This document shows, one piece after another, positions 29,201-59,540 of a DNA stretch of 64,000 bases. The notes under the pieces were generated by a model, which searched no databases, had not been told where the DNA came from, and was given only the letters and a program-made list of their open reading frames with translations. Made by a program: the position numbers and the translations under genes. Positions within the stretch are counted from its first letter, which is position 1. Each line of letters begins with the position of its first letter. The stretch is taken from the IMG/VR virus record IMGVR_UViG_3300016725_000004, one strand, 5' to 3'. The DNA is from a virus.

Positions 29201-29227
29201 TCAGAAATCCTTTTAATCACCAAAACT

Positions 29228-29256: not shown

Positions 29257-29286
29257 GAACTAAATTGACTTGTTTTTGGCTTACTT

Positions 29287-29790: not shown

Positions 29791-29800
29791 GACCTTCTCC

Positions 29801-29980: not shown

Positions 29981-29995
29981 AGTAGTTTCCTTATT

Positions 29996-30769
29996 TTACA
30001 TAGATTCAACAACTTTTTGCAGTTTTTCAACTGCATCAATAAAAGATTGTTTATCATTTTTTGACAATTTATTTCTTGTTTTGTGTATCTTACCTGAAAT
30101 TGACATTTTCAAATCTACAGTAAGAATATTTAATTTTTCTAAAAACTTAGCAATTGTAAGATTTTTACAGGCATTATCTTCACAGATTTTATCTGAATTT
30201 AATTCATTACACAGATCTGCATACATACGCTTTTGCATAATTTCATCTTTATCATTCCTAGCAATTTTCAACAAACGTTCCCGTGTCATTTCTGGTTTAT
30301 TTCTGGCATCATCAAGAATGTCTTGAGGAAGTTTATTAATCTTTAAAATTTCACTCACGGTACTCTTTGATTTGTGAAGTAATCTTGCAAGTGCATCATT
30401 AGAACATTGCTTTTGTTCTTTAAGAAACAAAAGTGATTCTGATAATTCAACTGCTGTTAAATCAGAACGCAAACAATTTTCAATTAAAGCCAAAGATAGT
30501 GCATAACCACCAATAAATGTAGCAGAAACAGTTACTCTCTTCAAGAGATTAAGGGCATGGACAAGACGTTCACCAGAAAGAAGAACGAGACGTTTATTAC
30601 AATAAGTAAAAACAATACTTTTATGTAAATCTTCATCTTTAATATTTTTAGCAAGTGCTATAACTTCATCCTCAGTGAAATATTCACTTGAATGTTTTTT
30701 GCTGGAAAGCAAATCTTTAATATTAAGTAAATATTCTTTACCATTCTCAAATTCAATTGTATTTTTCAT
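29996..30769 (-). CDS. ParB-like DNA-binding/nuclease-domain protein (257 aa)
   Basis: VLLSGERLVHAL and LIENCLRSDLTAVELSESL resemble ParB box (GERR..A / EN..R.DL...E). Confidence 0.45.
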   Translation of the reverse strand: MKNTIEFENGKEYLLNIKDLLSSKKHSSEYFTEDEVIALAKNIKDEDLHKSIVFTYCNKRLVLLSGERLVHALNLLKRVTVSATFIGGYALSLALIENCLRSDLTAVELSESLLFLKEQKQCSNDALARLLHKSKSTVSEILKINKLPQDILDDARNKPEMTRERLLKIARNDKDEIMQKRMYADLCNELNSDKICEDNACKNLTIAKFLEKLNILTVDLKMSISGKIHKTRNKLSKNDKQSFIDAVEKLQKVVESM

Positions 30770-30791
30770 GCGTCCTCCAATTATAAATGAT

Positions 30792-30814
30792 GGGAAGGTA
30801 ATAATTACCTTCCC
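30792..30814. terminator. stem-loop between 420-aa gene and ParB-like gene
   Basis: gggaaggtaat-a-attaccttccc palindrome; weak T-tract. Confidence 0.3.
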
Positions 30815-30829
30815 ATATATAGTGGTCAG

Positions 30830-32092: not shown

Positions 32093-32102
32093 CAGTTTCT
32101 CC

Positions 32103-32423
32103 TTAAATATTTTTCCAATCTTGGTAATATTTTTTCATTTTAACATACGAATTTCGTATGATAGATATATTGAATTTCCAAAAGATAATAGTAAGAATAA
32201 GAGAAAGAGCAGCAGAGATTCTGAGAATGTAAATATACATAATTGGAATGGTAAGTATTTTCATATGTGAATTTAAATTGCTATACAAATGAGCCATGAT
32301 AGCAGGTGCAAGCCAAGGGACGAAAGACAAAATGAAAAAGACAGTATAACACACAAGCAGTCCAAGTTCGCAGTAAAAATACTCAAAACGAATTTTCTTC
32401 ATCTCATGGTCATATGCGTTCAT
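32103..32423 (-). CDS. small membrane protein (start at internal Met)
   Basis: MNAYDHEMKK... with GGGGGAATT RBS, downstream of promoter; upstream part of track ORF overlaps promoter. Confidence 0.4.
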   Translation of the reverse strand: MNAYDHEMKKIRFEYFYCELGLLVCYTVFFILSFVPWLAPAIMAHLYSNLNSHMKILTIPIMYIYILRISAALSLILTIIFWKFNISIIRNSYVKMKKYYQDWKNI

Positions 32424-32449
32424 AATTCCCCCTTTCAAAGCATGGTATA

Positions 32450-32478
32450 TTATACCATGCTTTGAAAAGAAAGTCAAT
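32450..32478 (-). promoter_or_regulatory. consensus sigma70 promoter within 35-bp palindrome
   Basis: TTGACT-N17-TgGTATAAT; palindrome tttcaaagcatggtatattataccatgctttgaaa (32434-32468). Confidence 0.55.
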
Positions 32479-32490
32479 GGGTCAAAACAA

Positions 32491-33024
32491 CTAAATTTTG
32501 TCAAATTTGACTTCAACGAGAATGGCTCGAAGAAAATCATCACTGCCATCAGTTATTTGTGTAAGTCTAACCTTCCTACCATTAAGTTCAACAATGGGAT
32601 GATTACCTGCCCCACCACTCCACGGATGCTTACCACATATCTTTACAAAGTATTTGTTCAAAAGTGAAACACAACGAGCAAACTGCAAATGCTTTTTTGC
32701 AAACTTTTCAAACTTGTGATAGCGAGAAACCTTCTCCGCATTTGTTTCGTAATGCAAATCCTGAAACTGAAAACAAATGGTAGCTTCACCCCTGCTGGGA
32801 GCAAATTCACAAAGTGTAGTTTTGACTTTGACATTTTCCGAAGATGTCACATCCTTCAAAAGATGAAACATTGCGCCAGAGATAATCTCCGAAATGGAGT
32901 TGGAATAAGTAACAAGGTCTTCAAGCTGTTTCACACGCTGTTCTGCCCGAAGCCGAATGTTAGCAGAGCGGCGTTCGATACCTAATTCCTTAACCACAAC
33001 TTTTTTCAATGTATTAGCTTTCAT
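32491..33024 (-). CDS. hypothetical protein (177 aa)
   Basis: AAAGGGGTAATTT RBS; follows promoter. Confidence 0.5.
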   Translation of the reverse strand: MKANTLKKVVVKELGIERRSANIRLRAEQRVKQLEDLVTYSNSISEIISGAMFHLLKDVTSSENVKVKTTLCEFAPSRGEATICFQFQDLHYETNAEKVSRYHKFEKFAKKHLQFARCVSLLNKYFVKICGKHPWSGGAGNHPIVELNGRKVRLTQITDGSDDFLRAILVEVKFDKI

Positions 33025-33052
33025 AAATTACCCCTTTTTCAAAGTATGGTAT

Positions 33053-33081
33053 ATTATACCATACTTTGAAAAGAATGTCAA
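33053..33081 (-). promoter_or_regulatory. consensus sigma70 promoter within 35-bp palindrome
   Basis: TTGACA-N17-TgGTATAAT; palindrome tttcaaagtatggtatattataccatactttgaaa (33037-33071). Confidence 0.55.
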
Positions 33082-33093
33082 GAGGCTGAAAAA

Positions 33094-33306
33094 CTACGAA
33101 ATAAGCGGTTCAGCGGCGATTTCAAAAAGGTAGGTTCCTTCTTTGTCAAGTTGAAACGTACCATTTTGCTTGTTCACCCAAAGTTTGGGAAAACGGGTGC
33201 GTAGCTCTTTTTCAGCCGCAGCTTTACTTGCGGCCACAAAGAGAAATTCAGCTACGCCAAATGGTTTGAACTTGGTCACAACAAAAACTTCTTTGTTAGT
33301 GTTCAT
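33094..33306 (-). CDS. hypothetical protein (70 aa)
   Basis: minus-strand ORF. Confidence 0.4.
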   Translation of the reverse strand: MNTNKEVFVVTKFKPFGVAEFLFVAASKAAAEKELRTRFPKLWVNKQNGTFQLDKEGTYLFEIAAEPLIS

Positions 33307-33808
33307 GCTTATCCTCCAAAATGTTTAAGGTGAAATTAGGTTGTTTATCTCTCGCAGGTGTACGAGAGATAGAAACAGTTATAGCCACATCATGTAAAAC
33401 CGTATCATCTTTTGTCATATCCAAAAGATAAGTATTCAATTCATTGAATATTGTTTTAGAGAATGTTCCAAACATATTCACATCACCAGATTCAGTAATA
33501 ATCGAACCTAAGGGTGGCATGATAATCTCATGCCGCTTTTTGTTACATTGCTTCATTATCCAACGCAATGGCCCAATTAGCCATTTTTTATTAATTTCAG
33601 TATCTGAAGGATTTATTGTAAAAGAACACAAATCAAAAATTGCAGAAGGGGAAAGATTTCCTATCTTTCCAGCAAAAGGTATGCCTTCAACATATCCATT
33701 GAAAAGCTCTTCAATCATAAGGTAATTGTCATTAAGCGTGAAACGACAAAAACCTCCATATGTCATGACATGAGAAATAACACCCTGAGGGTTGATTGCA
33801 AATTTCAT
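33296..33808 (-). CDS. hypothetical protein (170 aa), distant family D-like N-terminus
   Basis: MKFAINPQGVISHV... Confidence 0.5.
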   Translation of the reverse strand: MKFAINPQGVISHVMTYGGFCRFTLNDNYLMIEELFNGYVEGIPFAGKIGNLSPSAIFDLCSFTINPSDTEINKKWLIGPLRWIMKQCNKKRHEIIMPPLGSIITESGDVNMFGTFSKTIFNELNTYLLDMTKDDTVLHDVAITVSISRTPARDKQPNFTLNILEDKHEH

Positions 33809-33820
33809 TTTAATCTCCTT

Positions 33821-34189
33821 TTAATCGCGTTTAGAAAAATCTTTCCCAAATTCAGGTGTACGAATTACAACATTATTCAATTGCTGTTCTATAATCCACA
33901 AAACACAATTCAGCAAAGCTTCATTAATTATAGTACGAATCTTTTTGCTGGTTGTATTTTGAGGAATAAGAACAGATTGCTCTTTCAATTTAGAATATGC
34001 ATCTAATAGACCTCCTACTTCATATGAGTTAACTCCTATATCCATAGTGAATATATCATGGCATTCACCACGAATAAATGAGGATATTTCAATAATATTT
34101 TCATGTACTGTTACTTTAAATTTCGGTGCATGATATCCTATCTTATGAGGATTAACTACCACACCTTTAGCAGTAAGGAGAAAGTGCAT
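33821..34189 (-). CDS. family D small protein (122 aa)
   Basis: MHFLLTAKGVVVNPHKIG... Confidence 0.5.
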   Translation of the reverse strand: MHFLLTAKGVVVNPHKIGYHAPKFKVTVHENIIEISSFIRGECHDIFTMDIGVNSYEVGGLLDAYSKLKEQSVLIPQNTTSKKIRTIINEALLNCVLWIIEQQLNNVVIRTPEFGKDFSKRD

Positions 34190-34200
34190 TTTAATTCTCC

Positions 34201-34614
34201 TTATACGAGTTTCACATTAAGGAATTTTTGTATTTCTTCTGGAGTTTGTTCAAAAATATCGTTAATACCTTTTTTCAATGAAACATAAGTTGATTGACGT
34301 AGTTGCTCAAATGCAGGAGCATACTGCAAAGTAAGTAATTTAAGTTCATCATCTGAAACTAATTTATACTTATGACATTCAATTGAATACAAAATATAAT
34401 CTGCAATCCCAAAGTTACCTGAAACAAGAACTCCCCAGATATCATCAAATCTGTACATATGAATGGTAGCATCATTAGAAATGCGCTTCATTTTTATGTA
34501 GGGTGTATCTTTTTCAAGTTCAATTTCACAAAGCCAAGGTAAGGCTGTCATTTCACAAGCGCGTAAAATATCACTAAAAGATGAAATTCCTAATTGCAGA
34601 TTTGGTAAAAACAT
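34201..34614 (-). CDS. hypothetical protein (137 aa)
   Basis: minus-strand ORF. Confidence 0.5.
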   Translation of the reverse strand: MFLPNLQLGISSFSDILRACEMTALPWLCEIELEKDTPYIKMKRISNDATIHMYRFDDIWGVLVSGNFGIADYILYSIECHKYKLVSDDELKLLTLQYAPAFEQLRQSTYVSLKKGINDIFEQTPEEIQKFLNVKLV

Positions 34615-34626
34615 ATACCCTCCTTT

Positions 34627-35070
34627 CTATTTGTAAATGTTAAGCATTAACGATAACAAAAAAGAATCAGGACGCACATTATGTGCATGAATGTAATGTG
34701 TATATCCATCAGGAATAACAAAAGTGTACCCTTTATATTCAGCTTTTATTTCACTACTTCCGTTAAGTTTGCCACAAATACGGCAAATAGAAGAACCCTT
34801 ATAAAAGGATCTGCTACCGGAACAGAGAAGCTTTGAAAATTTCTTTGTAAAAAGCTTCATCTGTTCTTCGGTAAGATTATTGGAATCTTCAACGGGTTTA
34901 TTGAATTTAAACCAATAACCTATTGCAACATTACCACGTTCCGTAATATGTGCAGTCTTCAAAGTATTGCGAATGGATATTCTAAGTTTTTTATGTTCAG
35001 GAAGATTAACTTCTTTCAAAGCTACATATGCATTTTCAAGAAGTTGGTAAGCATCAATATCTATAAACAT
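34627..35070 (-). CDS. hypothetical protein (147 aa)
   Basis: minus-strand ORF. Confidence 0.5.
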   Translation of the reverse strand: MFIDIDAYQLLENAYVALKEVNLPEHKKLRISIRNTLKTAHITERGNVAIGYWFKFNKPVEDSNNLTEEQMKLFTKKFSKLLCSGSRSFYKGSSICRICGKLNGSSEIKAEYKGYTFVIPDGYTHYIHAHNVRPDSFLLSLMLNIYK

Positions 35071-35441
35071 TATGCACCTCCTTTAGCAGCAGCACACATT
35101 TTAGTATAAGTATATATTCTATCACGCTCACCATATTCGAGCATTTGAATCGAATACGGAGCACGTTCTTTCAACTTGGGAGTGAAACGAGATCGTTTCA
35201 AAACACGGCAAATAATACCGGGATAAAATCCCATTACCGGATGGAGCACTAAACACACATTCCCTGCCTTTGGGGGAATCACAGGAAGACCAGCCGCACC
35301 CATAACAACCACGTTGGTAAAGCGGAAGAAGCAATCTTCTGTATGCATCAAAATTGCTTCGGGAGTATCAAGCGCATGGTTAAGGTATGTTTCAGGAATT
35401 TCTTCGACAATTGCCACCGCAGTGCATTCATATATTTCCAT
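35070..35441 (-). CDS. hypothetical protein (123 aa)
   Basis: minus-strand ORF. Confidence 0.5.
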   Translation of the reverse strand: MEIYECTAVAIVEEIPETYLNHALDTPEAILMHTEDCFFRFTNVVVMGAAGLPVIPPKAGNVCLVLHPVMGFYPGIICRVLKRSRFTPKLKERAPYSIQMLEYGERDRIYTYTKMCAAAKGGA

Positions 35442-35488
35442 AACTACTCCTTTCCTACCCAGTAGGTAGGAATTACATTCTGTTCTCC

Positions 35489-35728
35489 TTATTTTGAATA
35501 AATTTTACGGTTATTTGGTGTATTGATAACATACATAGATTCATGTGCCCGCAAAATAACACCACGCCGAGCCAAGCGGTTGAGAATCTTTACAACAAGA
35601 GGGCGGTCTTTTTCTTCATATTCTTCAAGATGAACATGCCAAAAATCGCCCAAGTTTTGGGAAAGAGATTTCCGAAGGCCGGTAAAAATCTCTTTGGAAG
35701 TAAGGCTGCGCTTTTGTTCAGTAGACAT
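35489..35728 (-). CDS. small basic protein, possible winged-helix (79 aa)
   Basis: start MSTEQKRSL with AAAAGGGGAGAA RBS; VVKILNRLARRGVILRAHE. Confidence 0.4.
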   Translation of the reverse strand: MSTEQKRSLTSKEIFTGLRKSLSQNLGDFWHVHLEEYEEKDRPLVVKILNRLARRGVILRAHESMYVINTPNNRKIYSK

Positions 35729-35742
35729 AATGTTCTCCCCTT

Positions 35743-36132
35743 TTATTTGTTTACAAAATACAAAACGAGGAAGACGATTTGAAACGCTGCCAGTCCAAAA
35801 TAAAAGTATGCATCCCACATATAGTCAGCAGAACGTCTGCGAGAATTTTCTATAACTTCATCTAATGCTTTTATATGTTTCTCTTGGATGCTAGTCAACT
35901 TGTCACAGTTTTCAATCACTCGCGGGAGTTTTCTCTGCTTTACCAAATTATCCAAATATTGAAGTCTTTCCAAAACTTTTTCCCGTTCTTCTTTCTCGAA
36001 GAAATGAAATTGAATATCAAGAATGGCCCGTTGGCGGTCGGTAGCAGAGGTATTCAACCATGCAATAAAACCAAGTTGATCTTCCTCTGACATGTTAAAC
36101 ATATCCATCCATTTTGTATTTTCGTACATCAT
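35743..36132 (-). CDS. hypothetical protein with C-terminal TM helix (129 aa)
   Basis: minus-strand ORF. Confidence 0.45.
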   Translation of the reverse strand: MMYENTKWMDMFNMSEEDQLGFIAWLNTSATDRQRAILDIQFHFFEKEEREKVLERLQYLDNLVKQRKLPRVIENCDKLTSIQEKHIKALDEVIENSRRRSADYMWDAYFYFGLAAFQIVFLVLYFVNK

Positions 36133-36316
36133 ACACCTCGAAGTTAGAAAGAGTGCAAAGCTTCTCGCAATGCCCGTTTAATCGGTTGGCCCAATTCATC
36201 CACCAGCAACAGTAAATGTTTTGAATTTTCAACTTTTGGGTTAAAAGAAAAAGTTATAAAATTTTGTGAAATTTCAATATAATCAACTTCCATTTCTTTC
36301 TCTGTATTTTCCACAG

Positions 36317-36586
36317 TTAGTCTCCTTTGATATTTTCAGAAATAAGTAAAAAGTTCAACATACATATAACCTGATGTTGATACTCCCTAGGAAGATTGTA
36401 AAATTGTTCATCTAATATTTGAATTTGGCTAGATGAAAGTTTTCGTAACCACTTCAAAAATTTATTATGATGAAGTATATTCATTTCAATATAATCCATC
36501 CAGTTAAAATTACCAATATGGGTGGATTTATCATAAAAGTTTCCAGTGAAAAGCAAATAGTTAACTTTATCAATTGCACTTTTCAT
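36317..36586 (-). CDS. hypothetical protein (89 aa)
   Basis: minus-strand ORF. Confidence 0.4.
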   Translation of the reverse strand: MKSAIDKVNYLLFTGNFYDKSTHIGNFNWMDYIEMNILHHNKFLKWLRKLSSSQIQILDEQFYNLPREYQHQVICMLNFLLISENIKGD

Positions 36587-36711
36587 ATTTACTCCTAAAT
36601 TAATAATTTACTTTCATTAAGAATTTTTATTTCTCCCCTACCAGTATCACGGTTAAATTCTTCTGACAAAGCTGTCAGTTGTTTGATTTGTGCCTCTGTC
36701 ATATATCCTCC

Positions 36712-37212
36712 TTATTTGCAAAGGTAACAAATACCAATAAAGATAAGTGCAACTACAGTGAATGAACCAAGCAAAACTCCAAGAAACTTGGCGATACTTA
36801 CATTAGGAGTATTATCCTCATCTTCATCATCCTCGTCATCATCGTCATCTTCACTGATAGGACGAATTTGAAGGTTAATTTGTTTGCGTTCCTCCGAAGA
36901 AAGTAAAACGGCTTGAGGTATAACCGGAAGTTCATCGGTTCCTTTAAGTTCAAATGAAATAACGGGTTCAATATACCACTTGTATTTCTCCAAACTCTCT
37001 TGAACTTCATCAAGTGAACAAAGTTCAAGTTCGCCAGCATACACGTTAAAAGCGGTATTAAGATGAGGGCAAAAGACAGTTATCTCATTTCCACGAATGG
37101 CGATAACTTGCAAAATATAATCTCCCTCGAACGCAGTAATGACGTGAGGCACATACATTTCATAGCCTTCGTCATCAATATCAGATATAGTAACCAAGCT
37201 ACCAAGTTTCAT
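36712..37212 (-). CDS. family E protein with poly-Asp tract and C-terminal TM anchor (166 aa)
   Basis: MKLGSLVTISDIDD...EDDDDDEDDEDEDN...FTVVALIFIGICYLCK. Confidence 0.55.
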   Translation of the reverse strand: MKLGSLVTISDIDDEGYEMYVPHVITAFEGDYILQVIAIRGNEITVFCPHLNTAFNVYAGELELCSLDEVQESLEKYKWYIEPVISFELKGTDELPVIPQAVLLSSEERKQINLQIRPISEDDDDDEDDEDEDNTPNVSIAKFLGVLLGSFTVVALIFIGICYLCK

Positions 37213-37225
37213 AACAACTCCCTAC

Positions 37226-37522
37226 TTAATATTTGTCCATGAATTTTATTATGGTGGTAAACAACTTAATTTCTTTTGGAGTCATACCCTCCAAAGCATC
37301 CTTATTATTTACCTCCTCAAGAATTTTCTCTAATGAGGTTGTGCGAAAATTTCCTGTCCAAAGAACAGCAGGTTCTTCAATATCAGGACGAAGAACCCTC
37401 GGATGAAAATAATTACGAGTAATCGTAAGTATCTCTCCCTCAACTTCAACTTCAAACGTAATGCCAACATATTTATTGACCTGGTCTACCACAGCACCAG
37501 CATGATTTACGAAAAATTTCAT
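37226..37522 (-). CDS. family D small protein (98 aa)
   Basis: MKFFVNHAGAVVDQVNKYVG... Confidence 0.5.
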   Translation of the reverse strand: MKFFVNHAGAVVDQVNKYVGITFEVEVEGEILTITRNYFHPRVLRPDIEEPAVLWTGNFRTTSLEKILEEVNNKDALEGMTPKEIKLFTTIIKFMDKY

Positions 37523-37573
37523 CTACCCTTCTCCTTTTCAATGGCGATAGCTGCCAGTTTTCGGCTATGGTAT

Positions 37574-37602
37574 ATTATACCATAAATAGCCGTTGGTGTC
37601 AA
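37574..37602 (-). promoter_or_regulatory. consensus sigma70 promoter (TTGACA-N17-TgGTATAAT)
   Basis: -35 at 37597-37602, -10 at 37574-37579; core palindrome ctatggtatattataccatag. Confidence 0.55.
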
Positions 37603-38064
37603 CTAGGCCAAATTAATGGCGTGGTACGGCAGTTTGTGCGGCTTGCTTGCTTTTAGCAATTCCACATATCCCAAGTTGAACAAGTCGCCGTTGCGCAACT
37701 TGCTAAAATAAAATTCAGCGTAATCTTTTGTCGTAAAACTGGTTCGATTATCATTTTCAGGGTTAATCAAATCCGTATACAACACGCGCCAACTAATTTG
37801 GCCGGGCGAAGAACTATCACAATATATATTAAAAATTCTTATTAGGAATGTTATCTCTCCACACTCAAAGGTTGGAGGTACTTCAAATAATACTGCATAA
37901 ACTTCTCGGTCAGTAAACTCATAATATTCACAGTCAGTGACACCCAACTTTATAAAGTTCACACAAGTTTTATTTCGTATCGGATCTGTTTGTTGTGTAG
38001 ATTTAATAAAATCTGCAAAGTTTGCAAATTTTGAAAAATCATGGTGAGCGAATTTTATTTGCAT
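37603..38064 (-). CDS. hypothetical protein (153 aa)
   Basis: minus-strand ORF. Confidence 0.5.
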   Translation of the reverse strand: MQIKFAHHDFSKFANFADFIKSTQQTDPIRNKTCVNFIKLGVTDCEYYEFTDREVYAVLFEVPPTFECGEITFLIRIFNIYCDSSSPGQISWRVLYTDLINPENDNRTSFTTKDYAEFYFSKLRNGDLFNLGYVELLKASKPHKLPYHAINLA

Positions 38065-38073
38065 AATGACTCC

Positions 38074-38336
38074 TCAATATAATTGACGAAACGTAGTTGA
38101 AGCTTCAACTCTGTCAAATAAAGTTGTGCCTTTATCATTAAAGACAAAATCAATTTTTAGAGTTTGCACATTAACTTTCAATATTTGATATGTACCTGTC
38201 ATGTATTCATGAAGGATTACTGCATAACTATTCTCCGCAAGATTTTTTATTCCAACACAGGATTCAGTAAGCAATCCACTACTTTTAGCTACAATATTCT
38301 CTTTAAACTTTTCCTGAATTTCCTCAAATTTCATTG
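38074..38336 (-). CDS. small protein (87 aa) overlapping stop of HTH gene
   Basis: MKFEEIQEKFKEN...; the 207-aa track ORF upstream of this Met is out-of-frame overlap with HTH gene. Confidence 0.35.
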
Positions 38337-38824
38337 AGGAAATCCTTTGCGGAACAACCAAAAATACCACCAAGCAGCTTTGCTTTGTTTCTTGGAATGT
38401 TACGCTGACCAAGTTCATATTGGCTGATATGTGATTGCGGCACACCGAGATCCTGTGCGAGTTCTTTTTGCGTGAGATTTGCATTCCTACGCAATTCTCG
38501 CAAAATGTCACACGGATACTTTGCGCTTTTAGGTTTAACAATTTTCCAAGTTTTGGGATTAGGAAAAGAATACATGCTAATATCCAATTGTCCCAAACAA
38601 ATAGTTTCAGAGGTACAATCTTTTCTTTCCACCTCCAAAACCAGCGCAAAACCAATTTCACCTTTAGGATTACAGATAGTAATAATACTATCTGCATCTA
38701 CTACAAAAAATGATCTTACAGTAATTTGGTCTGAAATTTTAACCATATCAAGGTCAGTACCTTGATAAATGGCAAAGTTACGAATGTTGGGTTTTTTCAA
38801 AGGAAGGCAAGTCAGAGTATACAT
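38324..38824 (-). CDS. XRE-family HTH protein with unknown N-terminal domain (166 aa)
   Basis: C-terminal LRELRRNANLTQKELAQDLGVPQSHISQYELGQRNIP (Cro/C1-type helix-turn-helix). Confidence 0.55.
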   Translation of the reverse strand: MYTLTCLPLKKPNIRNFAIYQGTDLDMVKISDQITVRSFFVVDADSIITICNPKGEIGFALVLEVERKDCTSETICLGQLDISMYSFPNPKTWKIVKPKSAKYPCDILRELRRNANLTQKELAQDLGVPQSHISQYELGQRNIPRNKAKLLGGIFGCSAKDFLNEI

Positions 38825-38833
38825 TTCGTTCTC

Positions 38834-39646
38834 CTAAGCAAGACGAATATAATCAGTAAGTTGATCCACATAGCCAGTAAGCTGAATAAAGGATTCAGCA
38901 CTGCCGCCCAAATCAGGATGGTGAATCTTTGACAAAGCACGGTATTGCGATTTGATTTGCTCCAAAGTAAGTTCTTCAATTGAGTCAAGCAAACCAAGAA
39001 ATTCAGCAGCTTCAATAACCTTACGCGGAAATCCACGCAATTTGGACTGCGCATTCATTTCCTCAACTTGCTCTTTTGTGTAATCCGAAAGAACAACATC
39101 CTGTTCAATGTTGAAACAAACTTTAATACCTTCTTTCAGAAAAGCATAAAAACTGCGGTAGTGCCAATCACTAGCACGATAATATCCTGCACCACCACAA
39201 TAATAGGAACCACTTTTATTTTCATAGTTTGAAAAATGTTGTGGCTTCACAACACTGCCGGGTCGATATTTATTCTTTAAGTCTTCTGTAGCTTTTGAAG
39301 CTGCCATAGCCTTTGTTGCAGTTGCCATTGAAATGGCTTCGGCTTCAAAGGCAGAAGCCCTATAATAATCATCATCCTTCCTCCAGTAAATGCGGTAGGA
39401 AGGCATGAGAATGCGGGCATAGAAATACTTTGCCAAGTTCTGGTGAGCTTGGTCATCAAGCTCAATTCGCCGGGCAATATTCTTAATCTTTTCAAAGATT
39501 TCTTTTGCGCCGTTACGAAAACGGATGGTGGTCATCTTACCTTCGTGAAGTTTCAAGTAATCACGAAAGTCTTCTGCCAAGTCTTCAACAATGTTGAGCA
39601 AGTTGAAATTTCCGAGATACTTCTTTTCATAAGCCTTGGGTTTCAT
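38834..39646 (-). CDS. J-domain (DnaJ-like) protein (270 aa)
   Basis: C-terminal QIKSQYRALSKIHHPDLGGSAESF (HPD tripeptide, J-domain helix II/III). Confidence 0.6.
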   Translation of the reverse strand: MKPKAYEKKYLGNFNLLNIVEDLAEDFRDYLKLHEGKMTTIRFRNGAKEIFEKIKNIARRIELDDQAHQNLAKYFYARILMPSYRIYWRKDDDYYRASAFEAEAISMATATKAMAASKATEDLKNKYRPGSVVKPQHFSNYENKSGSYYCGGAGYYRASDWHYRSFYAFLKEGIKVCFNIEQDVVLSDYTKEQVEEMNAQSKLRGFPRKVIEAAEFLGLLDSIEELTLEQIKSQYRALSKIHHPDLGGSAESFIQLTGYVDQLTDYIRLA

Positions 39647-39671
39647 TTATAACTCCTTTTTGGTATGGTAT

Positions 39672-39700
39672 ATTATATCATAATATATGGTAATTGTCAA
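39672..39700 (-). promoter_or_regulatory. consensus sigma70 promoter (TTGACA-N17-TATAAT)
   Basis: -35 at 39695-39700, -10 at 39672-39677; tggtatattatatca core. Confidence 0.55.
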
Positions 39701-39762
39701 GTATCTGACACATACGAAAAATGGCTGAAAACCAGCCATTTACGCCAATTTTCAGCCATTAA

Positions 39763-39969
39763 TTAAATGGGATTTGAGATACTATTCAATCGTTGAAGTA
39801 TGTCTGCTTGGCAGTTATCATGCAAATGAATAATAACACGACCATACCTATGAGAACCATCAGCTTCATCTGTACGTTCCATAAAGGTAAAGGTGTTAGT
39901 ATTATCTGGAATGATAACTTGTTTGCATTTATCGCAAATATAAACCGTATCTAATTTCACTATTTCCAT
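39763..39969 (-). CDS. small Cys-containing protein (68 aa)
   Basis: CDKCKQ...HDNCQ; minus-strand ORF. Confidence 0.4.
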   Translation of the reverse strand: MEIVKLDTVYICDKCKQVIIPDNTNTFTFMERTDEADGSHRYGRVIIHLHDNCQADILQRLNSISNPI

Positions 39970-50741: not shown

Positions 50742-51698
50742 TTACCAACGCCTACGGCGATTGGAGTAAAAATGCCACACAAGCAATATGCTTGCAACAC
50801 TAAAACCAACTAACACGATTGTTCCGAATCCCCAAGAGTCAGCATCGTCTTCATCGACTTCGACAGCCTCAACATTGTCCGGAACAAAATCAGGATTAAT
50901 AGCTACATTAGCAGCTTTCATTTCTTCCATACTCTTTTTTACTTCATCAAGTTGCTTCCTTAAATCTTCATTATCTTTAGCCAATACTTCTGCTTCTGCC
51001 AAGAATGCCTTTACACCTTCATCATTTTGACGATGATAAAAGAAGGCACCTTGATTATTCAAAGCATTAGCAGTAGCCTGATTAGCAGCAGCTTGAGCAT
51101 TAACTTTATTAGAATGATCTAACATCATAAATAACATCATAGAATCCCACCCACCGAAACTAGAATGGGTATTATACACATAAGATGGAGGATTTGAATA
51201 ATAATTATTATTAGGTGTAATAAATGTATAAGTTTTACCTGAAGAACTTGTATATGAATTGGGAATAGTAGGTTTACTTGTATTATATGAGCTAATAGAA
51301 TTTCCCTGTTTTGCAAATTTAGTAGAATCGACTTTAGGTACATTATTCATAATTGTAGTTTTGGTAGCTTTCGGTGTACCTGAACCAAATGAACCTGTAA
51401 AAGAATTATTTACTTTTGGTGTAGAGGGGGAAGTAGAGGATTGAGAAGTTTTAGGAGTAGAGGTAACTTTTGGTGTACCTGAACCAAATGAATCTGTAAA
51501 AGAATTATTTACTTTTGGTGTAGAAGATGAAGGTGAAGAATAAGAGGGTTTAGAGCTAACACTGGGCCTGCTACTCGAAAAACCTCCTCCTCTTCCGCCA
51601 CCACCACTACTTCCACCTTTAGCATCAGTAATTGCGGGAAGAAAAGCTAAGGAAACTACGCAAAATATGATAAGTAGAATACTACTAAATTTTTTCAT
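50742..51698 (-). CDS. secreted/membrane-anchored repeat protein (318 aa)
   Basis: signal peptide, Gly/Ser-rich region, two 33-aa repeats (TPKVNNSFTGSFGSGTPK), C-terminal TM plus RRRRW. Confidence 0.5.
   Translation of the reverse strand: MKKFSSILLIIFCVVSLAFLPAITDAKGGSSGGGGRGGGFSSSRPSVSSKPSYSSPSSSTPKVNNSFTDSFGSGTPKVTSTPKTSQSSTSPSTPKVNNSFTGSFGSGTPKATKTTIMNNVPKVDSTKFAKQGNSISSYNTSKPTIPNSYTSSSGKTYTFITPNNNYYSNPPSYVYNTHSSFGGWDSMMLFMMLDHSNKVNAQAAANQATANALNNQGAFFYHRQNDEGVKAFLAEAEVLAKDNEDLRKQLDEVKKSMEEMKAANVAINPDFVPDNVEAVEVDEDDADSWGFGTIVLVGFSVASILLVWHFYSNRRRRW
51361..51527 (-). repeat. about 99-bp direct tandem repeat (x2) inside CDS 50742-51698
   Basis: ggtgtacctgaaccaaatgaa(c/t)ctgtaaaagaattatttacttttggtgtaga occurs at 51373-51425 and 51472-51524. 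Confidence 0.6.
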
Positions 51699-53444: not shown

Positions 53445-53699
53445 TTATTTTCCATCGAAAGGAAAATCAATAAGCTGCAAGTATCCTTTCATTTGAGCAA
53501 TAGCAGCTTTTCTCCCTTTGTTAAAACCAAGGGAGTAACTTGTTTGGTGAATAGTTTTCAACTGCTCTTGTAAAGAGCAAATTTTAGTATTACTCTCTTC
53601 TAAGTTTAATAGACACTGAAACTTTTCTTCTGTAGTATCATTTAATTTATCTAGCCAAATTTGGCAAGCATCATGTACTACTAAAGGTTTTTCATCCAT
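53445..53699 (-). CDS. hypothetical protein (84 aa)
   Basis: minus-strand ORF. Confidence 0.4.
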   Translation of the reverse strand: MDEKPLVVHDACQIWLDKLNDTTEEKFQCLLNLEESNTKICSLQEQLKTIHQTSYSLGFNKGRKAAIAQMKGYLQLIDFPFDGK

Positions 53700-54238
53700 T
53701 ATTTATTCTCTCGAATAATTTTAAAAATAAAATCAACAAATTTTTTGTTGAAAAAGTCCTTTCCATATTTTTCAATCATCATCTTCTTAGTAGATTTTGC
53801 CAACTTGTAGTTTGATGGGCCTTCATACAATTTACCAACAAAAGAAGGATAAACTAAAGTGTCAAAGTCCATCGGCGTCTTGACTTCAATTTCAGCGGAA
53901 ATCAGGTTGGTATCATCATAAGAATCAACTTCCCAAATATCAGAACCAATACAAACTTGATAGCGAGTTTTATAATTAAAAACTCCATCGCACATTGAAA
54001 ACAAACTATAAGCTTCCATTCGAGAAACGGGAATATTTACTTCTTCCCGTGAATGCTTGGAAAGTTGTTGCTTCAAAGTAAGGCAATAGGAAATCTTTCC
54101 AGAAATATTTTCAATTCGGATACGACCAACTTTGCCGTCATCATGAAATATAAACCCTTGAAGCATTTTAGAGGTTGACGTAACATGTTCTTTCCAAGAG
54201 TCGCCAACCACTTCAAATTTACGTTCAATTTCGCGCAT
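53699..54238 (-). CDS. CYTH-domain (triphosphate tunnel metalloenzyme) protein (179 aa)
   Basis: N-terminal MREIERKFEVV (EIExKF CYTH signature); follows promoter. Confidence 0.55.
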   Translation of the reverse strand: MREIERKFEVVGDSWKEHVTSTSKMLQGFIFHDDGKVGRIRIENISGKISYCLTLKQQLSKHSREEVNIPVSRMEAYSLFSMCDGVFNYKTRYQVCIGSDIWEVDSYDDTNLISAEIEVKTPMDFDTLVYPSFVGKLYEGPSNYKLAKSTKKMMIEKYGKDFFNKKFVDFIFKIIRENK

Positions 54239-54297: not shown

Positions 54298-54326
54298 ATT
54301 ATACCATATTTTTATGGTTATGTCAA
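54298..54326 (-). promoter_or_regulatory. consensus sigma70 promoter (TTGACA-N17-TgGTATAAT)
   Basis: -35 at 54321-54326, -10 at 54298-54303. Confidence 0.55.
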
Positions 54327-54880: not shown

Positions 54881-55415
54881 TGCGAATTTCAAGTTTTCCC
54901 CTCCATTTAATATCATAAGCATATGATAAAAATTCTTGAAATCTAGCAATATGGTCATCAAAAAAGAAATTAAATATTGGAAGTTTATAATGTTGGGCAA
55001 TTCGCAATGCTTGTGTAGTGCCACCAGATTTAGGTGTCCAGCACACAATAAATTCTGTAGGAGTTTTTAAATCAAATCCTAAAACTTGATAGCAATTTCT
55101 ACCATGTAATCGTTGACCATAATCAGATAAGTTAAACCACGCAGGATGAAATTCACAAGCCATATCTAAAGCTTTACCTGTAACTTTATATAAAGGAGAA
55201 GGATTATTATTAAAATTCTTTTCGGGTAAATATATTTCTTTCTTACCTTTTACTAAATCACAACCACGTTCAAATGCAGAATCTGCACCATCTGCACCTC
55301 CAGAACGTAGTATAAATTTATTTTTACCCAAAAGCTTTCCAATATTAACCATTAGTTTTAATATGAACTTAGGAGTATCTCTACTACCAATGCCAGTATA
55401 AATATTAGGAGTCAT
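54873..55415 (-). CDS. SLOG/DprA-like Rossmann-fold protein (DUF2493-type, 180 aa)
   Basis: YTGIGSRDTP ... ILRSGGADGADSAFERG (DprA/SLOG nucleotide-binding motifs). Confidence 0.5.
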   Translation of the reverse strand: MTPNIYTGIGSRDTPKFILKLMVNIGKLLGKNKFILRSGGADGADSAFERGCDLVKGKKEIYLPEKNFNNNPSPLYKVTGKALDMACEFHPAWFNLSDYGQRLHGRNCYQVLGFDLKTPTEFIVCWTPKSGGTTQALRIAQHYKLPIFNFFFDDHIARFQEFLSYAYDIKWRGKLEIRND

Positions 55416-55638
55416 TTTTACGTTCTTTTATTTGTCTTTCATCATATTCATTTGTTATTTCTTTAATCTTTAATACACAAGCATCATATCCAAGTTGATA
55501 CATATTACGTTTATCTTGCTTTAATTCTTCAATCACTTGAAGAGCTTCATTTAATTTTGTTTCAAGGTGTTCAATTCGTTTAAGTAATTGTTTAGTATTG
55601 TTTGGAGGTGGTGGCGGTGGTGGAATAGAGTTTAGCAT
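55405..55638 (-). CDS. Pro-rich/coiled-coil small protein (77 aa)
   Basis: MLNSIPPPPPPPNN then heptad region. Confidence 0.4.
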   Translation of the reverse strand: MLNSIPPPPPPPNNTKQLLKRIEHLETKLNEALQVIEELKQDKRNMYQLGYDACVLKIKEITNEYDERQIKERKNDS

Positions 55639-56063
55639 TATTTTTCCTCCTTAGATTTATCTTTCTCAATTGAGAATACTGAGGGTATAACAACTTTGAA
55701 TTGTTCTCGAATATACTCACAAATTTCTTCAGATACCTTACAAGTAGCAACAATAAATATAATTTGACCTTTCAAAAATGTATGAAGAATCTTCAAATCT
55801 TTTAATTCAATCTGCTTAGTAGCAAATTGTGTGTTATATAAATAAGTAAAATTAACTTTTTCATTTTTATTAAGGTATTCATTAATTCTAGTAACGTAAT
55901 AAATATAATCCGTACCATCAAGAGATAATACTTTGGTAAAAGTTACTTTATGAGCACCAGAAACAACATTATAATCTAAATCCGTAAAACGAAAATCGTT
56001 AAATAATTCAGGAAATTCAAGTGATTTAGGTTCTTGCTTTTTAGGCAACTTTTTGCTTTTCAT
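55638..56063 (-). CDS. hypothetical protein (about 141 aa)
   Basis: start MKSKKLPKK with GGAGGAAAAG RBS. Confidence 0.45.
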   Translation of the reverse strand: MKSKKLPKKQEPKSLEFPELFNDFRFTDLDYNVVSGAHKVTFTKVLSLDGTDYIYYVTRINEYLNKNEKVNFTYLYNTQFATKQIELKDLKILHTFLKGQIIFIVATCKVSEEICEYIREQFKVVIPSVFSIEKDKSKEEK

Positions 56064-56592
56064 CTTTTCCTCCACAGAAAATACAACGATATGTTTCTGA
56101 TGCATTATCATCATCAAAATGCATTACATGTAAACCACAAGGTGAATGGTAACATGGATGATACCCAATCATAAAATTATCATTATATTTAATTTTATTT
56201 TTTATCATTATATCTTCAACATACTCTCTTATAGTATTTTCATATCCCCAAACATATCTAACTACTTCAGCACAACTTTTTTGCAAAATATGCAAACATT
56301 CTATTTTATATTTTAAAGTAGGTTTAGCATTAATTGGTGTAAAACTTTCTTTTGTGGATAATCCACAAAAAATACAAGTTTTATCTCCATAAAATATATC
56401 AGTTATAGCATGATATCCAAAGGGGGAAATAGAACATGTTCCAAAAGTATAATAGGATTCAATTTGAGAATTTTGAATTAAACCTTGTTTAACACAGCAT
56501 TTACCTAAATCATCAAGAAAATTTAATCTAATATTTAGTGAACTTCGTTGTAAATTTCTTAAAGTTAAATAGGATGATATTAATTTTTCCAC
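56041..56592 (-). CDS. Cys/His-rich protein (183 aa)
   Basis: multiple C..C and H..C pairs (CIFCG, PCYHSPCG, CIFCGG). Confidence 0.45.
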   Translation of the reverse strand: MEKLISSYLTLRNLQRSSLNIRLNFLDDLGKCCVKQGLIQNSQIESYYTFGTCSISPFGYHAITDIFYGDKTCIFCGLSTKESFTPINAKPTLKYKIECLHILQKSCAEVVRYVWGYENTIREYVEDIMIKNKIKYNDNFMIGYHPCYHSPCGLHVMHFDDDNASETYRCIFCGGKDEKQKVA

Positions 56593-56912
56593 GGTGAATA
56601 CTTTACTAATTCTTCCATACTCATTACTTCTTTAATAGTACGCTTTCTCAAATCGAGATACGCTTCTTCATTTTGACTTGCAAATACGCAAAAACCCTTT
56701 CCACATTCAGGACAAATAGAATCAATCCAATAATCATCTTGTGAAGGATCATAATTACCTGTATCTGAACTAAGTTTAGAATAGACTTGATTATGATTAC
56801 ATTTACTTTGAAAATTAGCAACTTGTTTCCAAAGTTCAACTTTTTCATCTACATTTCGTCTAATTGCTTGAATAAGATTATTTCTAATTTCTTGCATTTC
56901 AGGAGATTTCAT
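56580..56912 (-). CDS. hypothetical protein with CPECG motif (110 aa)
   Basis: minus-strand ORF. Confidence 0.4.
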   Translation of the reverse strand: MKSPEMQEIRNNLIQAIRRNVDEKVELWKQVANFQSKCNHNQVYSKLSSDTGNYDPSQDDYWIDSICPECGKGFCVFASQNEEAYLDLRKRTIKEVMSMEELVKYSPWKN

Positions 56913-57351
56913 TATTTGACTCCATTGAATTTAGTTCAGTTAGTGATTGCATCATTATATCAGGATTTACAATATTAATCAACATGTCGCCATGCTCAAG
57001 TATACCATCAAGAAAACCCAAATCTCGAAGTACATCAGGTTTCTGTATTTTAGCATCTTTCTTATTTAAGATTTGATTAATTTCATCAATTATAAATCCA
57101 ACCTTATTATTCAAATTACAAACAATAATCTTACAATTTTCATGAATTTCATATGTATTAGAACTTGAACAAATCATACGAAAATCAATAATAGGAACAA
57201 TAGTTCCTCTTAAATTTATAATACCTGCAAGATAATCAGGTGAATTAGGAAGTTTAGTTATATTAGGAATTTTTATAATACAATCCATTTTATTAATATC
57301 CAAACCATATTCAGTATTACCGCATTTAAATGTAATTATATGAATGTCCAT
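56899..57351 (-). CDS. CheW-like domain protein (150 aa)
   Basis: KCGNTEYGLDINKMDCIIKIPNITKLPNSPDYLAGIINLRGTIVPIIDFRMI matches CheW fold signature (..YG....V.EI.....P.....G..NLRG..VPVIDLR). Confidence 0.6.
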   Translation of the reverse strand: MDIHIITFKCGNTEYGLDINKMDCIIKIPNITKLPNSPDYLAGIINLRGTIVPIIDFRMICSSSNTYEIHENCKIIVCNLNNKVGFIIDEINQILNKKDAKIQKPDVLRDLGFLDGILEHGDMLINIVNPDIMMQSLTELNSMESNNEIS

Positions 57352-57352
57352 A

Positions 57353-58108
57353 TTAGACCTCCTGTACTGTAATTTTTAGCCTTGGGCCAGAAATCCAATC
57401 TTCAGCTTCAACATGTTTTAATTCTTGAGGTATTCTATTATAATCTTGATAACAAGTACGCAAACTAACATAATGTTCCTTACGATAATAGTAAAAGCCC
57501 CGTTTACCTTCTCCAATATAACAATCAATTAAAATTTCTGGAATTATTCCCGTACATCTATTTTTCAATTCAATTTGTCTAGTTTCTGGATTCCATACAA
57601 TATCAGCAACTAAGATTTTATTATCGCATTTTAAACAAATACAATAAATTACATATGGATTTAATCTATCTTCTTCTCCATAAGTATTAAACATTGTATA
57701 TTTCTTTTTATTAAACATAAAAGTACAACCACCATAAGCATCAATCCAAGTAGAATTTTTAATAGTATTAGCTATAGTGTTGGTAGATATACCAGCACCC
57801 ATCCAAAAATAATCTGTAAAACCTTCTTCATTTAGAGCTTCCCATTCACTTTCAGTATAATCTTCAATTTCTTCTGGTGTTAAATCACAAATATCATTCA
57901 TACAAAATTCAAGATTCTTATCTGCACCCATAAAAAAGATAATATTTTTTGAAAAACAATATTCAACAAATTTATTATAAATATCTTTATCCCAATGATA
58001 AGGTTGATTTATGCAATCTAAATACCTTTCAATCTTTTTAGGATTATCCATAATACAATATTTAAATTGTTTAAATATAGATAAAAAATAGTCAAATACT
58101 TCCATCAT
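57353..58108 (-). CDS. hypothetical protein (251 aa)
   Basis: minus-strand ORF. Confidence 0.5.
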   Translation of the reverse strand: MMEVFDYFLSIFKQFKYCIMDNPKKIERYLDCINQPYHWDKDIYNKFVEYCFSKNIIFFMGADKNLEFCMNDICDLTPEEIEDYTESEWEALNEEGFTDYFWMGAGISTNTIANTIKNSTWIDAYGGCTFMFNKKKYTMFNTYGEEDRLNPYVIYCICLKCDNKILVADIVWNPETRQIELKNRCTGIIPEILIDCYIGEGKRGFYYYRKEHYVSLRTCYQDYNRIPQELKHVEAEDWISGPRLKITVQEV

Positions 58109-58109: not shown

Positions 58110-58514
58110 TTAACTCCTCAAATGTGGTGGTTTACAATTATGAATTAAATATTCTTTATCTTCTAATTTAGCTAAATTACATAAATCTGAGAAATAAGGA
58201 ATTTCAGACTCTAGAAAATAAATATGCTTATCATAAGCCAAGGCAAATAATATTTCATCCCAAGCACCCATTCCAATATACCCATTGGTATTTAATACAA
58301 AAATACTATCTGATTGAAATATTTTTTGCTGGTACATTTCATCTAACATGTGTTTTACTTTACCACTCATATCTAAATTCTCTACATGACCAAATAATCC
58401 AACGGTATGAACAATATATCCATCTAAGGTACAACATTTTAATTGCTCTTTCCAAACATTAGGAAATTTAGTTGAGCCGACTAGTGTTAGTGTTGGGAAC
58501 ACAATTATTCCCAA
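58110..58514 (-). CDS. hypothetical protein (134 aa)
   Basis: minus-strand ORF. Confidence 0.45.
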   Translation of the reverse strand: MGIIVFPTLTLVGSTKFPNVWKEQLKCCTLDGYIVHTVGLFGHVENLDMSGKVKHMLDEMYQQKIFQSDSIFVLNTNGYIGMGAWDEILFALAYDKHIYFLESEIPYFSDLCNLAKLEDKEYLIHNCKPPHLRS

Positions 58515-58777
58515 CTTACAGTTGTTTTATCATAATCATTATCATAAGATACTTTATAATCATCTTTTCGTAATTGTTTAATTGTTTGTTCTATTACTTT
58601 ATTTTGGATAGATGCAGGAGAAGATTTAACAATATTTAATAAATTCACGGTACACTGAAAATATCCTTGTACTGCATTTTGCATACAAAGTTGTGTTACT
58701 TTGTAAATACATTCATCAACCTTTTGTTCAATATTAAGTGTAGTATTAGCTATTTCTCTCAATTTAGCCGCATTCAT
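58505..58777 (-). CDS. hypothetical protein (90 aa)
   Basis: minus-strand ORF. Confidence 0.4.
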   Translation of the reverse strand: MNAAKLREIANTTLNIEQKVDECIYKVTQLCMQNAVQGYFQCTVNLLNIVKSSPASIQNKVIEQTIKQLRKDDYKVSYDNDYDKTTVSWE

Positions 58778-59540
58778 AATTTCCCCCTAATTCAGGATGA
58801 AAATTTATTAATTGTTTGCTTTGCTTATTATACATTATTTCAGTCAATAACACAAACACTTGCAATCTATCAATTTGAGTATTTGTACTTAATACAAAGA
58901 TATATTTAGTTAAACAAATACCATCTGAAGGAGTATTAGTACAAAGATTACATTTAATACTAGTTTTAATATTAAAAGATTTTATTGCTTCTTTAATACA
59001 GGCATTACAATTATTTTGCATTTCATCAAAATAATTAAATATTTCTTTTTCGACAAATTCAACTAAATTATTTAGTTTCTTTTTAATTGTAGGAAAAGCA
59101 TATTCATATTTTCTAATCAATTTATTACGAGTAAATTCATCTAATTTTGCCATTCTATCTTTAGCAGTATTATGACTCATATCTGAGTATTTTATACAAA
59201 TCAATTCTAAATTATTTGTTGCCAATATATCTTCTATATAATCAATATATTTTTTATGTTTGTTGTTAAGTAATTGAATTAAATTTTTTGCATAAGGTGA
59301 TAACGTAATATTAATTTTAGCTAAATCTTCTTCGAGTATATCTAATGTAATATCTGTGTCTTCTAATAAATCATGAAAATATGCTGCAAGTCTTGCTGAA
59401 TTTGAAACCCAAATAGGTAAGTTATTTGAAACAGCTATAGGATGATGATAATAAGGTTTTCCAACCTTATCAACTTGAGTACCATGATATTTTATTAGTA
59501 ATTGGGCAATTTGTTCTGATTGTTTTAAACTAAATCCCAT
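58764..59540 (-). CDS. RelA/SpoT-type HD-domain hydrolase (small alarmone hydrolase-like, 258 aa)
   Basis: KYHGTQVDKVGKPYYHHPIAVS ... LAAYFHDLLEDTDIT (RSH hydrolase motifs G.PY..HP..VA and HDxxEDT). Confidence 0.6.
   Translation of the reverse strand: MGFSLKQSEQIAQLLIKYHGTQVDKVGKPYYHHPIAVSNNLPIWVSNSARLAAYFHDLLEDTDITLDILEEDLAKINITLSPYAKNLIQLLNNKHKKYIDYIEDILATNNLELICIKYSDMSHNTAKDRMAKLDEFTRNKLIRKYEYAFPTIKKKLNNLVEFVEKEIFNYFDEMQNNCNACIKEAIKSFNIKTSIKCNLCTNTPSDGICLTKYIFVLSTNTQIDRLQVFVLLTEIMYNKQSKQLINFHPELGGNYECG

Follow-up and report, generated by a model that had tools for sequence, protein, structure and literature searches.

CheW is a small protein that couples bacterial chemoreceptors to their kinase CheA. 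Here we describe a CheW gene in a stretch of viral DNA of 64,000 nucleotides (IMG/VR record IMGVR_UViG_3300016725_000004; hereafter the window), which forms part of a metagenomic contig of 233,379 bp (ENA ERZ27250305, k141_22416). The 150-residue product, termed phage CheW, is a member of the CheW family as judged by profile search, predicted fold and signature residues, and represents a known family in a very unusual genomic setting. In two or more diverged phage lineages, the gene has been maintained by strong purifying selection, and its product retains both canonical binding surfaces, whereas three conserved acidic residues on the mapped interfaces are lost. We propose tentatively, with a confidence somewhat short of even, that phage CheW enters the chemoreceptor arrays of the host and disturbs their signalling. 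A more specific version, in which phage CheW would be a domesticated mimic that has kept its docking surfaces, has lost its acidic coupling residues and acts as a dominant uncoupler through which the virus sets the swimming of its host, appears possible but distinctly doubtful.

Phage CheW belongs to the CheW family and is predicted to adopt the CheW fold

The original prediction, made from the DNA letters, had assigned the open reading frame (ORF) at 56899-57351 to a phage-encoded CheW-like adaptor of 150 residues. The frame was confirmed, and the two motifs quoted for it, YGLDINKMDCIIKIP and GIINLRGTIVPIIDFR, were located exactly. Search against Pfam gave the CheW profile PF01584 with a score of 87.5 bits (E 8.1e-25; profile positions 2-135 of 138), nearly four times the gathering cut-off of 23.5 bits, so that the CheW signature noted from the sequence holds in the profile hidden Markov model as well. 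PHROG 18840, a family annotated as "unknown function", matches the protein at E 8.6e-21. A phmmer search against the PDB retrieved the CheW structures of Thermoanaerobacter (2QDL) and E. coli (2HO9 and 8C5V) at E ~1e-17, and the paralogous P5 domain of CheA only at E ~0.2.

The AlphaFold2 model of phage CheW, built from a 24-sequence alignment, has a mean predicted local distance difference test score of 88 and a predicted template modelling (TM) score of 0.82. It contains ten β-strands and a C-terminal helix (residues 130-147), organized into two intertwined five-stranded β-barrel subdomains with the helix at the C-terminus; the strands of residues 41-47 and 50-56 correspond to β4 and β5. Structural similarity search using Foldseek against the PDB revealed that all 18 significant matches are CheW or CheA-P5 (TM 0.65-0.80, the best being 8C5V chain E), and the first match outside these two groups appeared at E 0.5. 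The predicted structure is thus a two-subdomain CheW fold with CheW-specific residues rather than a generic SH3-like barrel.

Compared to the bacterial CheW structures of E. coli (2HO9, 6S1K and 8C5V), Thermoanaerobacter (2QDL) and Thermotoga (1K0S and 2CH4), phage CheW has the same single-domain size and two-subdomain fold, with TM of 0.75-0.84, and shares the invariant residues, the receptor groove and the β4-β5 face. However, the sequence identity is only 28-32%, the phage gene has no che operon, the acidic residues at positions 27, 38 and 107 (E. coli numbering) are neutralized and G135 is replaced. In addition, phage CheW contains five cysteines against a median of one. It scores 70.1 bits against NCBIfam NF007903, the equivalog model of enterobacterial CheW, for which the cut-off is 260 bits; phage CheW is not an orthologue of enterobacterial or E. 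coli CheW.

The binding surfaces are conserved but three acidic residues are lost

We compared phage CheW with 80 bacterial CheWs from the genome scan, drawing on the interface residues that a 2026 review lists (PMC13098124); residues of the family are given in E. coli numbering. The structural residues G57, R62, G63, G99 and G133 are all kept, as G43, R48, G49, G85 and G116 of phage CheW; the first four are invariant in 80 of the 80 bacterial proteins and G133 is found in 72. The receptor-groove residues I33, V36, I39, V105 and V108 correspond to I19, M22, I25, I91 and I94, all hydrophobic. At interface 1, which binds CheA-P5, seven residues (T46, N50, P52, N60, G63, I65 and P67) are identical in phage CheW (T32, N36, P38, N46, G49, I51 and P53), accompanied by the conservative substitutions R47K, I48L, T51S, I55L and V58I. 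The motif GIINLRGTIVPIIDFR alone retains G57, N60, R62, G63, I65 and P67. Among the 34 columns conserved in at least 80% of the bacterial CheWs, phage CheW is identical in 23 and shows exchanges among Val, Ile, Leu and Phe in seven, which are expected because the genome is AT-rich.

Only four non-conservative changes remain in these 34 columns: E27T, E38C, D/E107Q and G135L. All four positions are changed in each of the three proteins of the phage clade, namely phage CheW and its relatives P0306 and P0002 (see below), P0002 having Asn at position 107 and Ile at position 135. Position 27 is Thr13 in phage CheW and Glu in 73 of the 80 bacterial proteins, whereas position 107, acidic in 80 of 80, is Gln93. 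At position 38 the bacterial CheWs have Glu (66), Asn (9), Thr (4) or Gln (1) and in no case Cys; the E38-R62 pair is therefore broken in the three phage-clade proteins, which have Cys at position 38, with R62 kept as R48. The E38-R62 salt bridge couples the receptor- and kinase-binding sites, and the E38A mutation disrupts the interaction with the receptor, according to PMC3828127, which describes the near-absolute conservation of E38 for CheWs of the F7 class. D107 sits at the contact between CheW and the methyl-accepting chemotaxis protein (MCP), and a cross-link across interface 2 joins E27 to CheA (PMC13098124). The loop following β8 is three residues shorter in phage CheW, and the alignment there is ambiguous.

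The gene is an old resident kept by selection

The GC content of the CheW gene (26.3%) and its GC at third codon positions (GC3; 15.9%) match the genome means of 27.5 ± 3.4% and 16.6 ± 4.4%. A second member of its 90%-identity protein cluster, the 152-residue P0306, comes from contigs of other samples. These contigs share 79% DNA identity and a common gene order with the window, except that the 251-residue gene immediately upstream of CheW is missing: in blastn, the variant aligns to window positions 55071-57354 and picks up again at 58126. Between the variant and the window, CheW is the best-conserved gene of the compared neighbourhood, with 89% amino acid identity and a ratio of nonsynonymous to synonymous substitution rates (dN/dS, ω) of 0.09 (dN 0.079, dS 0.87). 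The corresponding values are 74% and 0.17 for the 134-residue upstream neighbour, 71% and 0.21 for the 107/110-residue downstream neighbour, and 46% and 0.62 for the 195/183-residue downstream neighbour.

A third relative, P0002, is 43% identical to phage CheW and has the same N-terminal HLITFKC...DIDCIIK signature; it is encoded on a 1.4-kb contig of 19.9% GC, adjoining a DUF1937 gene. Altogether, the matching GC and GC3, the coupling to neighbouring genes, the synteny, the low dN/dS and the third relative demonstrate that CheW is an old resident kept by selection in a small clade of AT-rich elements, neither a contaminant nor a decaying gene.

The CheW gene resides in a probable AT-rich jumbo phage

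The sequence analysed comprises the window and a 10-kb flank on each side, ~84 kb in all. The same DNA was found at 100% identity in four samples, namely two ENA assemblies, one Logan run and one JGI metagenome. The literature gave no match to the sample accessions that would reveal the habitat. The ~120 ORFs of the window are tightly packed, with a coding density of 91%, and without exception lie on the minus strand; the window also encodes one tRNA-Arg(TCT), and its GC content is 25-31% outside one island. Most products have no Pfam match, whereas 37 PHROG families were matched at E <1e-5. A 378-residue protein just outside the start of the window belongs to phrog_7293 (E 3e-91) and shares 40-47% identity with proteins of KP27-like T4-type phages and a 258-kb Vibrio phage; the two flanks also contain genes for an HNH endonuclease and a NinI-like phosphatase. 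Judging from size, architecture and gene content rather than from a virion module, we class the element as an AT-rich jumbo phage, with CheW in its accessory-gene region. The "phage-encoded" part of the original prediction is supported by the context: a 233-kb contig, 120 co-directional genes, PurZ, 37 PHROG families and T4-like homologues.

PurZ is a 354-residue homologue of PurZ-type adenylosuccinate synthetase at 9,260-10,324 on the minus strand (phrog_1211, 5e-64), 35-39% identical to PurZ of cyanophage S-2L, PhiVC8-type and Acinetobacter phages, and it matched the PurZ-type genes of 201 records in the phage collection. The best-matching PurZ phages listed have genomes of 39-68 kb. A PurZ gene in a 233-kb phage of 27% GC raises the possibility of a jumbo phage in which 2-aminoadenine (Z) replaces adenine. 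Four genes upstream of CheW, at 58,764-59,540 on the minus strand, lies a 258-residue metal-dependent phosphohydrolase (phrog_990 at E 5e-22, with a weak HD_4 match), which might, given the PurZ gene, be a putative DatZ-like dATPase.

The window also encodes an anaerobic ribonucleotide reductase (NrdD) with an ATP-cone at 22,383-24,791 on the minus strand. Its closest named relatives are from Clostridia (Clostridiales and Oscillospiraceae; 53-55% identity). Among its best relatives are versions with inteins as well as proteins encoded by several contigs of ~203-214 kb (53% identity); these contigs may represent a related group of jumbo phages. A 4-mer Shine-Dalgarno core is present within 22 nt upstream of 52% of the 120 window genes, compared to 9% in the background, and Bacteroidota make little use of Shine-Dalgarno sequences. 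The Clostridia-like NrdD and the heavy use of Shine-Dalgarno sequences weakly suggest that the host is a Firmicutes-like anaerobe and not a member of Bacteroidota.

CheW is very rare among phages and no close bacterial source was found

The CheW domain had been called very unusual in phage genomes, and the searches support this: the INPHARED matches examined proved to be bacterial DNA, IMG/VR yielded essentially nothing and BFVD a single match. In the INPHARED collection of 50,697 phage records, megablast of the 14 kb around CheW gave no match, whereas tblastn gave six matches with phage CheW and ten with E. coli CheW, all of them short fragments and mostly without annotation. MT835847 bears a CheB-CheA-CheW-CheC-CheD operon, MT835701 a SecA-PrfB-CheW-homoserine dehydrogenase cluster, and AY973586, an MZTP02 fragment, a CheV-like response regulator beside Mn-superoxide dismutase; OR851771, a "phage" fragment from Salmonella, shares 94% identity with E. 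coli CheW. We rejected these four records, three of them after detailed examination, as genuine phage CheWs, since their gene content or identity to E. coli marks them as host DNA; neither query detected CheW in a genuine phage record of the collection.

Scans of IMG/VR with the phage CheW protein and with the 24-sequence CheW alignment found no relatives. A degenerate DNA motif for NLRGxxxPxxD hit 21 IMG/VR loci, a number near chance expectation by a rough estimate, and the only locus with a CheW-like fragment has it at the edge of a high-GC contig and is uninformative. Searching JGI metagenomes with an alignment of the phage clade gave no new clade members among the matches listed, which are partial and at most 42% identical. 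The BFVD match, A0A248SKJ8, has 139 residues and 19% identity (Foldseek E 1.5e-9, TM 0.74-0.80). Sequence sets of viruses or proviruses thus contain a few CheW-like entries, none characterized, and the members of PHROG 18840 may include host genes at prophage borders. A full-text literature search found no description of a phage CheW and no report of a phage protein targeting chemoreceptor arrays.

No protein outside the phage clade exceeds 44% identity, and where the contigs of the nearest ones were examined, the surroundings were bacterial che or MCP loci. An exhaustive HMMER search of a 1.84-billion-protein library gave 19,472 representative clusters. The top matches are proteins of 460-770 residues with three to five tandem CheW domains and 24-37% identity, which head the ranking because domain scores add up; metagenomes commonly encode such tandem proteins. 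The top matches in 185,579 species genomes share 38-41% identity and come from many phyla, with Geobacterales, Ignavibacteria, Acidobacteriota and Lachnospiraceae among the groups represented. Phage CheW is therefore not a copy of a host protein, as no species genome offers more than ~38-41% identity.

The neighbouring genes are orphans

The CheW gene, its motifs and its immediate neighbours are listed in Table 1. The 110-residue downstream gene has no Pfam or PADLOC match, the 251-residue upstream gene has no Pfam, PHROG or PADLOC match, and the 134-residue gene has no family match; the Pfam matches of the neighbouring genes are sub-threshold noise only. The variant phage does without the 251-residue gene, which is therefore no obligate partner of CheW. 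The original prediction had suggested, as hypotheses, that CheW could modulate host chemotaxis arrays or serve as a decoy. PADLOC gave no match for CheW and its nine neighbours, and the idea that CheW acts as a decoy of a defence system thus found no support.

Table 1. Coordinates of the CheW gene, its motifs and the adjacent genes in the window
Feature	Position (nt)	Strand	Remarks
CDS of 150-residue single-domain CheW homologue	56899..57351	-	ORF listing, ATG start, Pfam, AlphaFold2 model
Shine-Dalgarno AGGAGG	57358..57363	-	6 bases 5' of CheW ATG; within 3' end of upstream gene
YGLDINKMDCIIKIP, CheW residues 15-29	57265..57309	-	Receptor-groove strand; I19, M22 and I25 still hydrophobic; E38 is C24
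GIINLRGTIVPIIDFR, CheW residues 43-58	57178..57225	-	β4-turn-β5, subdomain 2; contact region for CheA-P5 / CheW ring
110-residue orphan gene	56580..56912	-	Downstream; Cys-pair zinc-ribbon-like motif; 14-nt overlap with CheW stop; syntenic in variant
251-residue orphan gene	57353..58108	-	Upstream; stop one base before CheW start; missing in variant phage
134-residue orphan gene	58110..58514	-	Conserved upstream neighbour of CheW in variant phage

CheW is the sole chemotaxis domain found by Pfam among 95 ORFs of the window and in both 10-kb flanks; genes for CheA, CheY, CheB/R or MCP are absent from the ~84 kb scanned. By contrast, the bacterial CheW homologues examined adjoin MCP, CheB or CheA genes. 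A scan for promoters and terminators around CheW found 46 sites, compared to 48.6 expected from shuffled sequence. In this region, where promoter-like sites otherwise occur at chance level, the only full match is a perfect extended σ70 consensus (TTGACA, 17 nt, TG-TATAAT; 12/12) at 54,298-54,326 on the minus strand, upstream of a gene for a CYTH-domain protein (53699-54238).

A proposed action on chemoreceptor arrays, and its alternatives

We propose that the phage would make its own CheW during infection, which would then dock onto the chemoreceptor arrays of the host. In this model, the hydrophobic groove formed by I19, M22, I25, I91 and I94 would bind the receptor tip, whereas the β4-β5 face (T32, N36, P38, N46, G49, I51 and P53) would bind CheA-P5 or an adjacent CheW. 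Once in the array, phage CheW would most likely compete or uncouple instead of coupling faithfully: host CheW would be displaced and the stoichiometry of the array altered, and eventually the CheA output and the swimming bias of the infected cell would change. A competitor or uncoupler seems the most likely form of action because the protein would be made without a matching receptor or kinase and has the changes E27T, E38C, D/E107Q and G135L. Overexpression of CheW disrupts the trimers of receptor dimers and impairs chemotaxis (PMC3828127). A foreign CheW devoid of three acidic interface residues would be even more likely than excess native CheW to compete and fail to couple. How the phage would benefit is a matter of speculation: the infected cell might be held in place or dispersed, a change in flagellar rotation might block superinfection by flagellotropic phages, or array components might be freed.

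Several points weigh against this proposal. Targeting of arrays presupposes a chemotaxis system in the host, and the hints as to which host this may be are confined to the Clostridia-like NrdD and the Shine-Dalgarno usage. Loss of E38 may leave coupling intact outside the F7 class, and D23, which lies beside C24, might stand in as the partner of R48. The interface-2 residues R117, E121 and F122 are variable across the family and cannot be scored. The strong purifying selection fits a working coupler equally well as an uncoupler. Furthermore, genes for capsid, portal and terminase are absent from the ~84 kb scanned.

Two other functional explanations are each rather unlikely in our judgement. 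Phage CheW might be a competent coupler that sustains or boosts host chemotaxis after the shut-off of host expression and keeps the cell in nutrient-rich or anoxic zones until lysis. The structural hallmarks and both binding surfaces are all retained, β4-β5 is present, unlike in FrzB, selection is very strong, and NrdD and PurZ are further genes of the window with a host-like metabolic function, all of which agrees with such a role. However, CheW is a stable structural protein, and the gain from supplying it alone, without CheA or receptors, is not obvious; excess CheW is inhibitory in the model system (PMC3828127); the four non-conservative changes are clade-specific, with E27T, E38C and D/E107Q on mapped interfaces; and the gene is not a copy of a host protein. 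With a similarly low probability, the CheW scaffold may have been re-used elsewhere, in a Che-like pathway for type IV pili, biofilm or cyclic di-GMP, in the titration of RecA, or with the polar array serving as a landmark. The clade-wide loss of three conserved acids suggests a changed partner, and the orphan neighbours could all be unrecognized partners. An interaction between RecA and CheW is reportedly documented in Salmonella and would provide a precedent. Divergent CheWs with non-canonical roles also exist, FrzB being an example (PMC6952110). Against re-use, conservation within the protein is highest in the canonical receptor groove and the CheA-P5 face, the adjacent upstream gene is dispensable, and no defence-system or other domain is attached to CheW.

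Explanations that deny the gene a role in a phage fare far worse. That the DNA is bacterial, as a chimeric assembly, a host fragment or a large non-viral element, is very improbable. The lack of virion genes in the ~84 kb and the bacterial nature of the CheW matches in public "phage" records would fit this explanation, but the identical sequence was assembled independently from four samples, including the 233-kb contig, the GC and GC3 of CheW equal those of the surrounding genome, and its start and stop are coupled to neighbouring orphan genes. Moreover, synteny is kept in the 79%-identical variant, PurZ and numerous PHROG families are encoded on its strand, and no CheW closer than ~41% was found among the bacterial genomes searched. 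Still less credible is a neutral passenger, recently captured and decaying without a role. Many accessory genes of jumbo phages are of doubtful use, but the selection data contradict this explanation, with ω far below one at a dS of 0.87 for what is locally the most conserved gene; three lineages, one of them at only 43% identity, have an intact frame, the composition is fully ameliorated and the ribosome-binding site is strong.

Other features of the window

An island of 25 co-directional genes at 26,200-39,800 differs in composition (GC 37.4% and GC3 34.8%, compared to 27.5% and 16.6% elsewhere). Its left border is sharp, with GC rising from 0.30 to 0.48 within 250 bp and peaking at 0.61 near 27,250, whereas the right border is gradual; no flanking direct repeats of at least 14 nt were found around it. 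The island contains a ParB-like gene (29996-30769), a helix-turn-helix regulator (38324-38824) and a protein with a DnaJ-like C-terminus (38834-39646), in addition to two apparent pairs of paralogues recognized by eye from the translations (28440-28838 and 36712-37212; 28865-29200 and 37226-37522). The phage genome may have received the island as foreign DNA or as a mobile insert. Within its peak of 50-60% GC, at 26,987-27,883 on the minus strand, a 298-residue ORF has long Asp/Glu runs between Lys-rich stretches and no match in Pfam or PHROG; both strands have open ORFs of 100-300 residues there, as expected from low-complexity repeats.

Other products of the window include DprA-like, RlaP-type nucleotidyltransferase, MazE-like and SPFH proteins and several helix-turn-helix regulators. 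A 318-residue ORF (50742-51698) with a weak bZIP-like coiled-coil match contains a 63-bp near-repeat of 95% identity (51,363-51,425 and 51,462-51,524).

Comparison with known systems and significance

FrzB of Myxococcus xanthus lacks a 20-residue β4-β5 region and cannot bind its CheA (PMC6952110). Similar to phage CheW, it is a stand-alone CheW-like protein; its role lies in shaping arrays rather than in plain coupling of kinase and receptor, and it offers a precedent for accessory CheWs with modified interfaces (PMC6952110). However, phage CheW keeps β4-β5 almost unchanged, and FrzB is chromosomal and located in a che-like operon. A lone phage CheW would create the same stoichiometric imbalance as overproduced native CheW in E. 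coli; the latter is a laboratory effect of the cell's own protein, whereas phage CheW is foreign, diverged and naturally selected. PHROG 18840 and A0A248SKJ8 of BFVD are the comparable rare CheW-fold proteins in viral or proviral sets, both uncharacterized.

Tip and Aqs1 of Pseudomonas phages are type IV pilus inhibitors with novel small folds that block an ATPase and are thought to give superinfection exclusion. Like them, phage CheW would be a small accessory protein directed against the motility apparatus of the host; it differs in that it would mimic a signalling scaffold of the host and act on the chemosensory array.

As the public "phage" CheW records examined are host DNA, naive surveys would overcount phage chemotaxis genes, and the annotation of a genuine phage CheW needs a check of genomic context. 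Few signalling machines in biology are understood as well as chemoreceptor arrays, and the changes E27T, E38C and D/E107Q are natural probes of residues already mutagenized in chemotaxis research. Conserved by strong purifying selection, phage CheW is a concrete candidate that can be cloned to examine whether viruses direct how infected bacteria behave. If it does act as an uncoupler, this would be, to our knowledge, the first virus known to directly reprogram bacterial chemotaxis signalling.

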